Shown: one piece after another, positions 18,440 through 26,752 of the stretch
Position numbering within the stretch: the stretch's first letter is position 1
Layout: every line of letters begins with the position of its first letter
Assembly (NCBI GenBank): GCA_938084885.1
Contig: CALKGG010000119.1
Coordinates: 10,393-74,392 of the forward strand
Reading direction: 5' to 3'
DNA length: 64,000 nt
From: an uncultured Acidimicrobiales bacterium
Lineage (GTDB): Bacteria > Actinomycetota > Acidimicrobiia > Acidimicrobiales > SHLQ01
Notes under the pieces: model-generated
Database searches by the model: none
What the model saw: the letters and a program-made list of their open reading frames with translations, nothing else
What the model was told of the DNA's origin: nothing
Position numbers and translations under genes: made by a program

Positions 18440-19435
18440 GTGAAGGTGGCGGCGATCGGGGGCGGGTCGTGGGGAACCACGGTTGCGCACCTGTGCGCAC
18501 ATAACGCCGAAACCGTGCTGTGGGCGCGCCGCGCCGACGTGTGCACAGCCATATCGGACACCAACGAGAACCCCCGCTACCTCGAGGGTTTTCCGCTCCA
18601 CCAATCGTTGACCGCGTCAGCAAATCTCGACGAGGTCGTCTCGGGAGCCGACGTGGTCGTCATGGGTGTGGCCTCGGCCGGCTTTCCGTCGACCCTCGAA
18701 GCCCTCAGGCCACTGGTTCGTCCGTCAACGCCGATCGTCTCTTTGGCCAAAGGGTTCGAGACGAACACCGGGCGCCGCATGACCGAGCTCATAACCAACG
18801 TGTTCCCGAACAATGCAGTCGGGGTGCTAACCGGACCAAATCTCGCCAAGGAAATCCTCGCCGGACAGGCAGCCGCCTCGGTCCTTGCATTCGAAGACGA
18901 AACCGTCGCAACTCAACTCCAACCGATCTTCTCGATCGACCGCTTCCGGGTCTACACCAACCCAGACATGGTCGGCTGCGAACTCGGCGGAGCGTTAAAG
19001 AACGTGATCGCAATCGCTGCTGGTATGGCCGACGGTTTGGGAGCCGGCGACAACACACGGGCGGCAGTCATCACCCGTGGCCTCGCAGAGATCACGCGGC
19101 TCGGCGTTGCGATGGGAGGCAAACCGGAGACCTTCGCTGGCCTTGCGGGCATGGGCGATCTCATCGCCACGTGCATCAGCCCGCAGAGCCGCAACCGCAC
19201 CTTCGGCGAAGAGTTCGGCAAAGGACGTTCCGTCGAGGAAATCACCGAATCCATGAACCAAGTCGTCGAAGGCGTCAAAAGCGCTCCCGTCGTTGCGCGG
19301 TTGGGCCGGGAACACGGCGTCGAGCTGCCCATCGCCGAAGAGATTCGGGCCATCATCGAAGACGGAAGAACCGCACGAGAGGTCTACCGCGGCCTCCTCA
19401 AGCGACCCCAACACGGCGAGCACCTGCCTGACTAG
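18440..19435 (+). CDS. gpsA: NAD(P)H-dependent glycerol-3-phosphate dehydrogenase
   Basis: The GTG at 18440 gives VKVAAIGGGSWGTTVAHL (a GxGxxG motif). Further matches are LAKGFE, GPNLAKEI, LKNVIAIAAGMADGLGAGDNT and AGLAGMGDLIATC. Confidence 0.9.
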   Translation: MKVAAIGGGSWGTTVAHLCAHNAETVLWARRADVCTAISDTNENPRYLEGFPLHQSLTASANLDEVVSGADVVVMGVASAGFPSTLEALRPLVRPSTPIVSLAKGFETNTGRRMTELITNVFPNNAVGVLTGPNLAKEILAGQAAASVLAFEDETVATQLQPIFSIDRFRVYTNPDMVGCELGGALKNVIAIAAGMADGLGAGDNTRAAVITRGLAEITRLGVAMGGKPETFAGLAGMGDLIATCISPQSRNRTFGEEFGKGRSVEEITESMNQVVEGVKSAPVVARLGREHGVELPIAEEIRAIIEDGRTAREVYRGLLKRPQHGEHLPD

Positions 19436-19482
19436 TCGACGCGTCGTTGGAACAACTGGCCATCGACAACGGTTCCCTCGCC

Positions 19483-23914: not shown

Positions 23915-25325
23915 CACAGATATCGGCGTATGCCTGCTGCATCGACGAACGCAAAAGACCGGGGCGCGTCACCGACTTGGGATCGAGGAAACAGCCAACG
24001 TGCAAGTTTCCGCAATACGACATCGCCGTCAGATTGAACGCCGTGCCGGCCACCGGACCGATCGGATACATGTGAGTAATCTGAGCGCCCGCCGTAAAGA
24101 TTGGTATCGGCGCACCACGCAGATTCGACGTTGCCCAATCCAGCGACTGCGCACGAGCTCGCCCCGCTTTCGACAACACCGAGCCCGGCAGCAGCGACGC
24201 AACACCGGCCATAACGTTCAGCGCGTCAGGAGATGACGCCTGCACTTCCTCAAGCTTGTCAGCAATCGCATCGCGAGTCGCAACAAAAACCTCCTCGACC
24301 GACCCATAGTCACCGCGGACATGGAACGGCACCGGCGTGAACGCGTTCCCACCCGCAGCGTCATCGGACCGAGTGCTCACAACAAAGCTCAAATTGAACT
24401 GCGGAACCTGAACTCCCACCGCTTCGTGATACCGCTGCGCCCCGAGCACCGACCCAGCCACGAACGCATCGTTCACCGAACCACCCAGGCGTTTCGACGC
24501 CGCCTTCAGCTCGTCAAGCGAAACATCGAACACTTCGAGATGACGTTGCCGAGAGCGGTTGCGCCATTCCGATGATCCGGTCTGAGGACCGCCCGATCTC
24601 AGTTGTCCGGCCGCTGCCTTCGCCATATCTCCGGTCTTGCTGACAACGTCTTTGACGCGTTCCGAATCGGCTCCCCACAACGAGACTTCGGCGGCAGCTT
24701 TTCGGGCCAGGGCAACCTGCCTTTTTGCCACGTGCTCAATGTCGGCACGCACCCCTCGTGTTGTGTCGGGATCGTTCACCGGAACAATGGTGGACGTGCT
24801 GTCGATTTCGACCTGCGGGTTTCGCTCGAAGTCGAGATACATCTCGGCCAACCGCAGCGCACCAATGCCGTCGCTGACCGAATGATGCAGCTTCATGATG
24901 ATCGCGCCAGAAATCGACGTCTTCGTTTTGCGTCCACCTGGACCCGCCACGGCAACGAACTCCCAAAGGGGGCGAGATGTATCGAACGGATCTTGGAAGA
25001 CTTGTGCGGTCAGTTCAAGGAGTTGATCGATTCCCCCCGGTTTCGGAAGCTGCACATGGCGCACGTGATCGGTGATGTCGAATTCGTCGTCGATGACCCA
25101 ACGGGGCGGGGCCAAGCCGAAGCTCGCTTCGACTCGCTCGCGCAGGCGAGTGAGCGTCAGGGAGGCGTCGAGCATGGAGGCCAAGAAGCGTTCGAAGTCC
25201 GGAGCGTCATCGAGCAAGAACAGCGACCCCATGCCAGAAGAGAACCAAGGGTCTGACTCGGCAGCCCACATGAGTGCTTCGGTCTCAGTCATGTAGCTCG
25301 AGAGGTGAATTTGGCGTTCGCTCAC
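23892..25325 (-). CDS. wax ester synthase / diacylglycerol O-acyltransferase (WS/DGAT), canonical active site
   Basis: It carries the KLHHSVSDGIG (HHxxxDG) catalytic motif and an NLRGAP motif in the C-terminal half. Length is 477 aa. The GTG start overlaps the stop of the upstream acyltransferase gene (GTGA). Confidence 0.9.
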   Translation of the reverse strand: MSERQIHLSSYMTETEALMWAAESDPWFSSGMGSLFLLDDAPDFERFLASMLDASLTLTRLRERVEASFGLAPPRWVIDDEFDITDHVRHVQLPKPGGIDQLLELTAQVFQDPFDTSRPLWEFVAVAGPGGRKTKTSISGAIIMKLHHSVSDGIGALRLAEMYLDFERNPQVEIDSTSTIVPVNDPDTTRGVRADIEHVAKRQVALARKAAAEVSLWGADSERVKDVVSKTGDMAKAAAGQLRSGGPQTGSSEWRNRSRQRHLEVFDVSLDELKAASKRLGGSVNDAFVAGSVLGAQRYHEAVGVQVPQFNLSFVVSTRSDDAAGGNAFTPVPFHVRGDYGSVEEVFVATRDAIADKLEEVQASSPDALNVMAGVASLLPGSVLSKAGRARAQSLDWATSNLRGAPIPIFTAGAQITHMYPIGPVAGTAFNLTAMSYCGNLHVGCFLDPKSVTRPGLLRSSMQQAYADICATDVFGV

Positions 25326-26752
25326 GAGTCGCCTCCGTCAGGAACCGACGGCCCAATATCTTCGCTGGTCATTTCGTAGCCCGGAGGAAACGTCTTTTTG
25401 AGCGCTTCGACCGATGGCACATGCGGGGTGTTCGCGACATCTGGCAGCAACGCCGACAGCGCACTCATAATCCGTTCCGTGTCGGCCTTGAAGCTGCGAT
25501 ATTTGAGATCGACCGGCTCGCCGACGTTGACGCTGACCAAAGGAGGGTTGACCACGTTGAAGCTCGGCACTTGCTGACTGCGCGGCCAGACCTTCTCGGT
25601 GCCCCACAATCCGACTGGGATGACCGGGACGTTGCCGCCGTCCTTTGCGAGCTGGGCGGTGCCGAACCGGCCGTGCAGGGTTGGGTCGAAGAAGGCGTGA
25701 CCCCGCGGGATGGTGCCTTGCGGTGCAATGGCGACCATCTCGCCGGCTTGCAAGGCTTCGATTGCCTTGTCGAGCGGATCACGAGAACCGCTCCCCCGGT
25801 CGACTCGAATGCCGCCTGCGAGTCGGGCGATTGGACCGACAACTGGGTTGTCGAACAGTTCGGCTTTGCCGAGGAAGCGACAGGGCCGACCGCTCTTGGC
25901 GATCAGTTGCTGCATTGCCATCACGTCGAAGTAGCTGCGGTGATTGAAGGCCAAGATTGCGGCCCCGGAATCGGGAAGGTGCTTCAGGCCGGCGAATTTC
26001 CACGATGCGTTCGGAGCGAATTCGGTGCGGGTGAATGTCCGCATCCAGTCTTGGAGTTCGCGGCCGGCGAACTTGAGCACGCCGGGTGGAGCATCGAAGT
26101 GGCGGATGTCCCATCCGTGAAGCATGGCGACGGCGGACAATCGGGCATCGGGGTTTACCGCAACGGCGTGACCGACTGCGTCGAGCATTGGGCAATCGAA
26201 GTAGCTGTCGGAGTAGCCGAAGCTCTGTGCGAGGGAAATTCCGTGGGCTTCGGCCCAGGCAACGATGGCGTCTCGTTTGTTTGTTCCCCACACGAACGGC
26301 CCTTCGGTCTTTCCGGTGAAGTGCTCGCCGTCGTGGACCCACTCAGTTCCAATGACGTCGTCAAAACCGAGGGCCTGGGCGAATGGACGCATCAGCACGC
26401 CGGGACTCGTGCTGGCAATGACGAGTTTGACGTTGGCGTTGCGGTGTTCGTCGAGGAGGAGCTTCGCGTAGCCGGGAACGGCTTCGATCAGGTCGGGTAC
26501 GGCGTTGCGAGCTGCGGTTTCGACAGCGTCGACAGACCAGCCCTTGGCTGCGTTGACCGCGAGCCGGGCGAGGCGCATGTTGAACTTGGTTTCGCCGAAT
26601 AGGTCATAGATGCGCACCATGAGGTCGGCGCCTGGCAGGCTCGACGCTTTGCTGTGAATACCTGCGGCTTCGAGGTGTCGGGCGAAGATCGTGCCCGATG
26701 CGTGCGGCAGCAATGTGCGATCGAGATCGAAAAAGGCAGCTGCGCTCATCAA
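25322..26752 (-). CDS. bifunctional HAD-IB hydrolase / lysophospholipid (1-acyl-glycerol-3-phosphate) acyltransferase fusion
   Basis: The N-terminal HAD motif I is AAFFDLDRTLL (DxDxT), with later HAD motifs (ASTSPG, ...GYSDSYFDCPML). The C-terminal half has the acyltransferase H(X)4D motif (AFNHRSYFDVM), FLGKAELF and IAPQGTIPRG. Confidence 0.85.
   Translation of the reverse strand: MMSAAAFFDLDRTLLPHASGTIFARHLEAAGIHSKASSLPGADLMVRIYDLFGETKFNMRLARLAVNAAKGWSVDAVETAARNAVPDLIEAVPGYAKLLLDEHRNANVKLVIASTSPGVLMRPFAQALGFDDVIGTEWVHDGEHFTGKTEGPFVWGTNKRDAIVAWAEAHGISLAQSFGYSDSYFDCPMLDAVGHAVAVNPDARLSAVAMLHGWDIRHFDAPPGVLKFAGRELQDWMRTFTRTEFAPNASWKFAGLKHLPDSGAAILAFNHRSYFDVMAMQQLIAKSGRPCRFLGKAELFDNPVVGPIARLAGGIRVDRGSGSRDPLDKAIEALQAGEMVAIAPQGTIPRGHAFFDPTLHGRFGTAQLAKDGGNVPVIPVGLWGTEKVWPRSQQVPSFNVVNPPLVSVNVGEPVDLKYRSFKADTERIMSALSALLPDVANTPHVPSVEALKKTFPPGYEMTSEDIGPSVPDGGDS

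Follow-up and report, generated by a model that had tools for sequence, protein, structure and literature searches.

A three-part gene neighbourhood, probably for neutral-lipid metabolism, with a palindrome-associated lysine-tailed protein in Acidimicrobiia

Contig CALKGG010000119.1 of an uncultured Acidimicrobiales bacterium was analysed over a stretch of 64,000 nucleotides (64 kb; hereafter the window), and eight genes at positions 18440-26752 are its subject. They probably form a metabolic neighbourhood for neutral lipid, most likely triacylglycerol (TAG), in three separately transcribed pieces. On the minus strand, unit A (26752 to 23892) encodes a HAD-acyltransferase fusion and a canonical wax ester synthase/diacylglycerol acyltransferase (WS/DGAT), and unit B (23578 to 20391) encodes a lysine-tailed protein of 152 aa, an XRE-family regulator, a patatin and a second, variant WS/DGAT. 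Unit C lies on the plus strand, convergent with unit B and downstream of a GT2 and a DUF533 gene; it holds gpsA and a lipase-like hydrolase, which are loosely and variably associated with the rest. An earlier sequence-only reading of the same DNA had taken the block for a single, self-contained and previously undescribed genomic unit of nine genes, although it named eight, which is the number present. The lipid theme of that reading is real and recurs in relatives, where variant loci swap in other lipid genes, but the reading overstates both the unity and the novelty of the block.

The six minus-strand genes follow the same order in ten loci (L001-L010, about 8 distinct genomes) at 53-87% identity, namely HAD-acyltransferase, WS/DGAT1, lysine-tailed protein, XRE, patatin and WS/DGAT2, and two metagenome contigs (L027 and L035) hold this order as far as they extend. 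Gene order in relatives, which had been proposed as a check on the block, is therefore conserved for units A and B. On the other hand, gpsA is absent in L004 and L011 and the hydrolase in L005, L006, L009 and L010; one or the other is missing in 6/10 loci, and all eight genes are retained in L007 and L001. The minus-strand genes also vary. L011 is without WS/DGAT2, and L013 is without the WS/DGAT1 pair and carries instead a typical 1-acylglycerol-3-phosphate acyltransferase (AGPAT), an acyl-CoA synthetase and an esterase. In L010, WS/DGAT1 and the lysine-tailed gene flank a typical AGPAT and an acyl-CoA synthetase, an arrangement that L035 probably shares. The pair of lysine-tailed protein and XRE is joined to the patatin, with or without WS/DGAT2, in every locus of at least 41% identity. 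A separate observation concerns L005, a near-complete metagenome-assembled genome (MAG) of Acidimicrobiia, in which a MASE1-PAS-HisKA_3 sensor histidine kinase (13227-15131, minus strand) stands between WS/DGAT2 and gpsA in place of the hydrolase.

Profile searches of the window proteins against Pfam and NCBIfam, together with their motifs, uphold every enzyme assignment made from the letters: the WS/DGAT, Patatin, Acyltransferase, HAD and HTH_3 models match the products that had been named. The first gene of unit A (25322-26752, minus strand) encodes a 476-aa fusion of a HAD-IB hydrolase and an LPLAT/PlsC-type acyltransferase, with matches to PF12710 (99.9 bits, 3.2e-28), PF01553 (80.2 bits, 1.6e-22) and TIGR01490 (117.7 bits vs a cut-off of 98.3). 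It carries the motifs DLDRT (DxDxT) and HRSYFD (HX4D), and its matches in the PDB are 3fvv for the HAD domain and 5kym for the PlsC part. The stop of this gene overlaps the start of WS/DGAT1 (GTGA). WS/DGAT1 (477 aa, 23892-25325, minus strand; PDB relatives 6chj and 7nxg) scores 135.3 bits with PF03007 (4.4e-39) and 46.5 bits with PF06974 (4.9e-12), both above the Pfam gathering scores, and its canonical HHSVSDG motif is kept in 10/10 sequences (the window and nine loci). This translationally coupled pair is one already known from actinobacteria for the late Kennedy pathway: phosphatidate would be the product of the acyltransferase and TAG that of WS/DGAT1, with the HAD domain as the suspected phosphatidate phosphatase.

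At the far end of unit B, WS/DGAT2 (443 aa, 20391-21722, minus strand) similarly exceeds the gathering scores of PF03007 (148.3 bits, 4.7e-43) and PF06974 (55.0 bits, 1.2e-14). The HHxxxDG motif is not found in this protein; residues 134-140 read HYSIIDG, and the Tyr aligns opposite the second His of Acinetobacter baylyi AtfA (PDB 7nxg). The form HY[AST][IV]IDG is kept in 9/9 WS/DGAT2 sequences (the window and eight loci), with the rest of the protein 70-87% conserved. Because the His-to-Tyr replacement is conserved in all nine, WS/DGAT2 appears to be maintained, with an uncertain chemistry. The atf4, atf10 and atf14 genes of Rhodococcus jostii are likewise without the second His (PMC2667194). 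The gene before it encodes a patatin-like lipase or phospholipase (321 aa, 21725-22690, minus strand), with PF01734 at 58.4 bits vs a cut-off of 27.7 (1.4e-15) and the motifs GGGIAG (residue 10), GTSAG (42) and DGG (198). Conservation within the block peaks at this patatin, whose 82-93% identity far exceeds, in the same loci, the 57-82% of WS/DGAT1 and the 53-82% of the lysine-tailed protein.

The lysine-tailed protein (152 aa, 23120-23578, minus strand) belongs to no Pfam family and consists of an acidic helical N-domain (pI 4.3) and a Lys/Ala/Thr-rich tail. The tail, residues 118-152, has a pI of 11.0 and contains 11 Lys and zero acidic residues among its 35 residues, and in the family alignment the relatives show AKKxTAKK repeats of variable length. 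The AlphaFold2 (AF2) model places helices at residues 2-42 and 76-111, with a PFADRLP-type repeat link and a disordered tail. Helix 1 is amphipathic, with a hydrophobic moment (muH) of 0.55 that 0.7% of shuffled sequences attain. The family is small: a search with an N-domain profile found 120 cluster representatives among 1.84 billion proteins, and all members whose names were looked up are unnamed or 'hypothetical'. The tails of 17/63 family members match PF07382 (HC2, histone-H1-like); 4/63 match the Apolipoprotein model and 3/63, distant members, weakly match Phasin_2. The relatives are almost exclusively metagenomic, and the matches in genome collections are MAGs of Acidimicrobiia/Acidimicrobiales. 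Two such matches carry the labels Verrucomicrobiales and Chthoniobacterales (L009, JBLIMK010000106.1, and L010, CAXMRH010000118.1, respectively); both share a whole locus of Acidimicrobiia type at 55-88% protein identity, and the labels are probably binning errors.

The sequence-only reading had called this protein HbhA/TadA-type. The architecture agrees, an acidic helical domain being followed by a Lys-rich tail, but homology is not detected by hhalign. An 11-column match to HbhA obtained with single-sequence hhalign was considered and discarded, as it was lost when the N-domains were compared profile to profile. The family scan is uninformative on HbhA membership, NCBIfam holding no HbhA model. 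By its predicted features, the 152-aa protein shares the design of HbhA/TadA/MLDS and is paired with a similar partner, without being a demonstrable member of that family. It is a candidate lipid-droplet coat and DNA-binding protein.

The partner, an XRE-family regulator of 118 aa (22687-23043, minus strand; HTH_3 7.9e-12), is Rv0474/MLDSR-like. Its orthologue in Mycobacterium parascrofulaceum (L016:2643-3071), to which it is 45% identical over 103/118 aa (E 4e-28), is encoded directly upstream of hbhA, and the match takes in the C-terminal region beyond the helix-turn-helix (HTH). In this region, the motif AI..D..(L/I)(T/S)..QK..L(E/D)(I/V)Y..F is common to all aligned members of the XRE family. 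The similarity to the hbhA-adjacent regulator places the XRE in the family of Rhodococcus MLDSR (PMC5504291), a kinship drawn through the mycobacterial regulator and not through RHA1_ro02105 itself. In every examined locus that extends past the structural gene, the order is structural gene and then XRE.

In R. jostii, MLDSR is co-transcribed with MLDS and is itself sequestered on lipid droplets; its own promoter contains two partly palindromic motifs to which it binds, one an operator and the other overlapping the promoter (PMC5504291). MLDS is TadA, a homologue of HbhA (PMC8401914, PMC10699116). A comparable arrangement of sites is found before the 152-aa gene. Site 2, TGCGAAGTAAAGTACGCA (23675-23658, minus strand), is an 18-bp palindrome lying over a putative -10 hexamer, TAAAGT (23668-23663, minus strand). 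Site 1, TGCAAAGTAAAGTACGCA (23714-23697, minus strand), lies 39 bp before site 2 and shortly before a putative -35 hexamer, TTGCAA (23690-23685, minus strand), with N16 between the two hexamers. The symmetry of the sites is TGCGWA-N6-TWCGCA, and the consensus 18-mer, TGCGTAGTAAAGTACGCA, is one base off the window copy of site 2. Sites 1 and 2 are the only matches in the window, vs zero expected by chance. In all close relatives, a second site stands 39-40 bp upstream; in distant relatives, site 2 is nearly unchanged and a related palindrome, TGCGAAGTATTTCTTGCA, occupies the position of site 1, so that conservation of the palindrome extends to loci of 27-30% protein identity. Between the sites, the relatives have a -35-like hexamer, TTGACA, TTGACC or TTGCAA, and many of these promoters read TTGACA-N16-TAAAGT. 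The promoter of unit B was not flagged in the window by a consensus promoter scanner, the call being based on the alignment with relatives.

That the palindrome is exclusive to this gene pair is seen when 241 million metagenome records are scanned for exact TGCGTAGTAAAGTACGCA: of 19 matches, 17 precede a gene of the 152-aa family. Sixteen are located 50-100 bp upstream of such a gene in the right orientation, with the XRE next where the contig allows, and a further one (L036) precedes a divergent family member and XRE. Two matches are at contig ends and are not interpretable, and the match in L021 is unrelated (chance). By this distribution, the TGCGTAGTAAAGTACGCA palindrome is a dedicated cis-element of the lysine-tailed protein/XRE pair, and its dyad symmetry and overlap with the promoter fit an autoregulatory operator. 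No site of this type precedes unit A or gpsA (exact 18-mer; degenerate sites were sought only in the loci analysed). All interpretable matches except that in L021 are at the pair, which gives no evidence that the XRE controls unit A or gpsA. The role of the XRE as a regulator for the module as a whole, as proposed earlier, is not borne out: within the 64 kb, candidate operator sites stand only before the 152-aa gene. An 8-bp hairpin between the 152-aa and XRE genes folds no better than shuffles (z = -0.57), and we do not claim an attenuator there.

Two further observations concern regulators of this kind. Upstream of the mycobacterial Rv0474-like gene (L016 2555-2605), there is a perfect 10-4-10 palindrome, AAGTGCTTGC-AATA-GCAAGCACTT, which is a candidate mycobacterial operator unlike both the Rhodococcus box and the Acidimicrobiia site. 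In the window, a stand-alone shikimate-kinase-like protein of 204 aa, below all AroK/AroL cut-offs, is encoded just upstream of the HAD-acyltransferase (26885-27499, minus strand), and this protein and the XRE match the two halves of NCBIfam NF006015. We take this family to include BzdR-type regulators, which are fusions of an XRE HTH with a shikimate-kinase-like domain for the binding of an acyl-CoA effector. The two halves hint at a split sensor and regulator, although among the relatives only L001 and L002 have the kinase-like gene.

Between units A and B lies a spacer of 313 bp (23579-23891), which parts WS/DGAT1 from the 152-aa gene. The junctions reported earlier are as described, that is, the GTGA overlaps at 25322-25325 and 22687-22690, the 2-nt gap at 21723-21724 and the shared CTAG of the convergent stops at 20391-20394; the very tight packing claimed for the block thus applies to these junctions and is interrupted by the spacer. 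Unit A would end in this hairpin-rich region, in which a terminator-like hairpin with a T-run is present at 23812-23791 (minus strand), and the folding z of -5.97 predicts strong structure. In addition, a 48-nt palindromic repeat occurs twice in the spacer region, at 23756-23803 and at 23867-23914, with the hairpin between the copies. The copies are 90% identical and 111 nt apart; the latter takes in the final 23 nt of WS/DGAT1 with its stop codon, and no third copy occurs in the window. At the position of the repeat, L010, and probably L035, carry the AGPAT and acyl-CoA synthetase genes, and the duplication may thus have been left behind when these were lost. Alternatively, it may be a duplicated terminator.

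In unit C, GpsA (18440-19435, plus strand; PF01210 and PF07479) passes the NF009098 equivalog model at 443.7 bits vs a cut-off of 436. The neighbouring alpha/beta hydrolase (303 aa, 19483-20394, plus strand) has a GHSLG nucleophile elbow. Its open frame runs from TTG 19447, and the start is most likely ATG 19483, because the orthologues align from that Met; the exact 303-aa product has been recorded (P0296). Its best profile scores, 22.9 bits for PGAP1 and 21.8 bits for Abhydrolase_6, are both sub-threshold, and some orthologues carry PF07819. No sequence match was found in the PDB. The AF2 model has a pLDDT of 82.5, and its best PDB fold matches are weak (E of at least 3.6e-4, TM 0.3-0.4) and fall on minimal lipases such as the A. 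fulgidus lipase, B. subtilis LipA, cutinase and TesA. The hydrolase family is widespread and uncharacterised.

Based on these results, a mechanism may be outlined for unit B beside the late Kennedy pathway pair of unit A. Unit B would be driven by a putative sigma-A-type promoter (TTGCAA-N16-TAAAGT) that is flanked and overlapped by the two palindromes, and an XRE dimer would bind both sites and autoregulate the unit, as MLDSR does at the mldsr-mlds promoter. The 152-aa protein would coat lipid droplets via its amphipathic N-domain, and its tail would bind polyanions or DNA, similarly to MLDS/TadA/HbhA. The patatin and the variant WS/DGAT may then act at the droplet surface in lipolysis and re-esterification. 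The storage of TAG in such droplets is itself a proposal, as are the substrates of every enzyme.

A number of results weigh against a neutral-lipid neighbourhood organized in this way. The Rhodococcus MLDSR box, GNT(T/A)GCTNNTGCTANC (PMC5504291), is not found here, the conserved palindrome being TGCGTAGTAAAGTACGCA. The right half and centre of that palindrome are better conserved than the left half, and part of the signal may therefore be the promoter itself and not an operator. In L015, L017 and L018 (27-30% identity), only the lysine-tailed protein/XRE pair is left, with no lipid neighbours, which implies that the link to lipid may be lineage-specific or coincidental. The flanking non-lipid genes (GT2, DUF533, an HtrA-like protease and L28/L33) are syntenic too; the conserved order is thus partly common descent and only partly evidence of function. 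Confidence in the AF2 model of the 152-aa protein is low (pLDDT 59.8), and profile-profile comparison of its N-domain with HbhA gives an hhalign probability of 0.3-1.5%, the HbhA profile being shallow (all sequences above 83% identity, no Rhodococcus member). The WS/DGAT assignments, upheld by Pfam, stay below the NCBIfam model TIGR02946, with scores of 286.4 and 220.0 bits vs a trusted cut-off of 309.95, and by these scores both proteins are divergent family members. WS/DGAT2, which is without the second His, the presumed catalytic base, may be inactive. Finally, bacterial patatins are phospholipases more often than TAG lipases.

Several of these points feed an unlikely but serious alternative, in which GpsA, the PlsC-like acyltransferase, the patatins and the nearby DedA/VTT protein belong to membrane-lipid housekeeping (synthesis and remodelling of phospholipids), the 152-aa protein is an unrelated histone-H1-like nucleoid protein with its own autoregulator, and the adjacency to WS/DGAT genes is inherited synteny with no coupling of function. 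Such a nucleoid protein would agree with the PF07382 matches of the tails, with the distant pairs that have no lipid neighbours and with the syntenic flanks, and a membrane-lipid role would agree with the variably placed GpsA, which passes a housekeeping equivalog model, and with a patatin and DedA pair close by. It is harder to reconcile with two WS/DGAT genes, which are dedicated to neutral lipid and lie inside tightly coupled units (4-nt overlaps and the 2-nt gap), or with the linkage of the pair to the patatin in every locus down to 41% identity, and the substitutes in the variant loci are again lipid genes. Moreover, the closest characterised relatives of the regulator control droplet proteins (PMC5504291), and because MLDS is both droplet-bound and DNA-binding, the coat and nucleoid readings are not exclusive. 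The single self-sufficient, co-regulated module of the sequence-only reading, covering precursor supply through mobilisation, draws on eight functions that are plausibly lipid-related within 8.3 kb and on the retention of all eight genes in L007 and L001. We consider it improbable. At least three transcription units are present: two strands converge at 20391-20394, the convergent gpsA and hydrolase genes are variable, with one or the other missing in 6/10 loci, and the structured spacer, with its terminator-like hairpin and own promoter, splits the minus-strand genes, with operator-like sites only before the 152-aa gene. Self-containment fares no better: the two acylation steps would have to share a single H(X)4D acyltransferase domain, the whole 64-kb window, unlike L010, L013 and probably L035, has neither a typical AGPAT nor an acyl-CoA synthetase, and the role of the HAD domain as phosphatidate phosphatase is unproven (PMC10351704).

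Far less credible than either is an anti-phage or toxin-type island, in which the patatin would be a membrane-disrupting effector under an XRE repressor, as in CBASS with CapH-like regulators. Patatin effectors do occur in defence systems, and the XRE gives generic matches to the HTH and CapH models of PADLOC. However, PADLOC matches neither the patatin nor the 152-aa protein nor the hydrolase, defence genes such as a cyclase or a sensor are absent, and the locus shows stable synteny with housekeeping flanks and no anomaly of composition. This idea was rejected on the PADLOC test, the patatin being unlike the patatins of defence systems. We therefore retain the neutral-lipid neighbourhood in three transcribed pieces as the probable reading.

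Most of its parts are already known from Rhodococcus and Mycobacterium, and the arrangement of HAD-acyltransferase and WS/DGAT is published (PMC10351704, PMC10699116). The claim that nothing of the kind had been described is thus contradicted by three precedents (PMC10351704, PMC10699116, PMC5504291). In Actinomycetota, a WS/DGAT, an AGPAT-HAD fusion, an acyl-CoA synthetase and a typical AGPAT occur together in a conserved arrangement, sometimes with gpsA and lipases, and it has been suggested, but not demonstrated, that the HAD domain supplies the missing phosphatidate phosphatase; the WS/DGAT carriers include Ilumatobacter and Microthrix of the Acidimicrobiia, Ilumatobacter with several WS/DGAT genes (PMC10351704). 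In M. tuberculosis, Rv2482c-Rv2486 comprises plsB2, plsC, a TAG synthase, lipQ and an enoyl-CoA hydratase (PMC10699116). Like that Actinomycetota cluster, the atf9-plsB-plsC-like operon of R. jostii and Rv2482c-Rv2486, the window has the fusion next to a canonical WS/DGAT, with gpsA and lipases or esterases nearby. It differs in being a reduced version of the published Kennedy-type cluster, from which the typical AGPAT and acyl-CoA synthetase are missing, and in having the lysine-tailed protein, XRE, patatin and HY-variant WS/DGAT, which are not mentioned for those clusters.

The likeness to MLDSR-MLDS of R. jostii RHA1 and to Rv0474-hbhA lies in a small XRE beside a protein whose helical N-domain is followed by a Lys/Ala-rich tail. 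With MLDSR-MLDS, the window also has in common two partly palindromic sites at the pair's own promoter, one of them over the promoter, although here their binding by the XRE is presumed. On the other hand, the gene order is reversed, the structural gene being first here; the N-domain is without detectable homology to that of HbhA; the site is TGCGWA-N6-TWCGCA in place of the MLDSR box; and the mycobacterial hbhA locus does not share an operon with a patatin and a WS/DGAT, unlike the locus described here.

Two other systems are alike by analogy only. In PhaR-PhaP, the gene of an abundant granule-coating amphipathic phasin is controlled by a small promoter-bound repressor, which is the same logic of coat protein and autoregulator; however, no homology is shown, the storage enzymes here are WS/DGATs, and no polyhydroxyalkanoate (PHA) synthase is present in the neighbourhood examined (13.7-37 kb). 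The eukaryotic droplet surface set of perilipin, ATGL/PNPLA2 (a patatin-domain TAG lipase) and DGAT2 likewise combines a coat, a patatin-domain lipase and a DGAT on one surface, but WS/DGAT is unrelated to DGAT1/DGAT2 and the coat proteins are unrelated. We know of no bacterial patatin of this family that has been shown to be a TAG lipase.

Outside the block, 3 kb upstream, there is a second pair of lipid genes, which consists of a patatin (367 aa, 29476-30579, minus strand; PF01734 6.7e-19) and a VTT/DedA-domain membrane protein (30576-31250, minus strand; PF09335 1.1e-15), with a 4-nt overlap between the two. This pair also occurs in L001 and L004, L011 holding the DedA gene only, and it is possibly an associated lipid pair outside the region first delineated. 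Divergent from it is a MacB-type ABC exporter (31394-34747, plus strand) composed of an ATPase and an 860-aa FtsX/MacB permease, which adjoins the DedA/patatin region also in L001, L004 and L011.

What appears to be new, from the sequences compared here, is the family of lysine-tailed proteins, its putative operator and its operon with lipolytic and acyltransferase genes in Acidimicrobiia. No description of the family, of the palindrome or of its combination with lipid genes was found in the literature, and a 2026 preprint on Arctic neutral-lipid genes contains nothing on this cluster. To our knowledge, work on bacterial lipid droplets has been confined almost entirely to Mycobacteriales, in which the coat (TadA/MLDS/HbhA) and its regulator are set apart from the TAG enzymes. 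It is possible, although we hold this only tentatively, that the lysine-tailed protein/XRE module is an ancient droplet coat-and-regulator of Actinomycetota, in which the regulators of Acidimicrobiia, Mycobacterium and Rhodococcus are still orthologous while the droplet-binding domain of the coat was exchanged or is no longer recognizable, and that in marine and sediment Acidimicrobiia this module was fused into one autoregulated operon with a patatin TAG lipase and a His-to-Tyr WS/DGAT under an 18-bp operator, as a counterpart of perilipin, ATGL and DGAT.

If the neutral-lipid reading is true, the locus would provide evidence from genomic context, independent of the Rhodococcus experiments, that ties an Rv0474/MLDSR-type regulator and its lysine-tailed partner to neutral lipids. 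The bacterial patatin is flagged as a candidate TAG lipase, and the conserved WS/DGAT without the second His offers a natural variant for probing the need of that residue. A precise cis-element, TGCGTAGTAAAGTACGCA, and a small operon would be open to direct testing, and a new, unannotated protein family would become a droplet-coat candidate in Acidimicrobiia, a deep-branching class that is abundant in marine sediments and for the most part uncultured.

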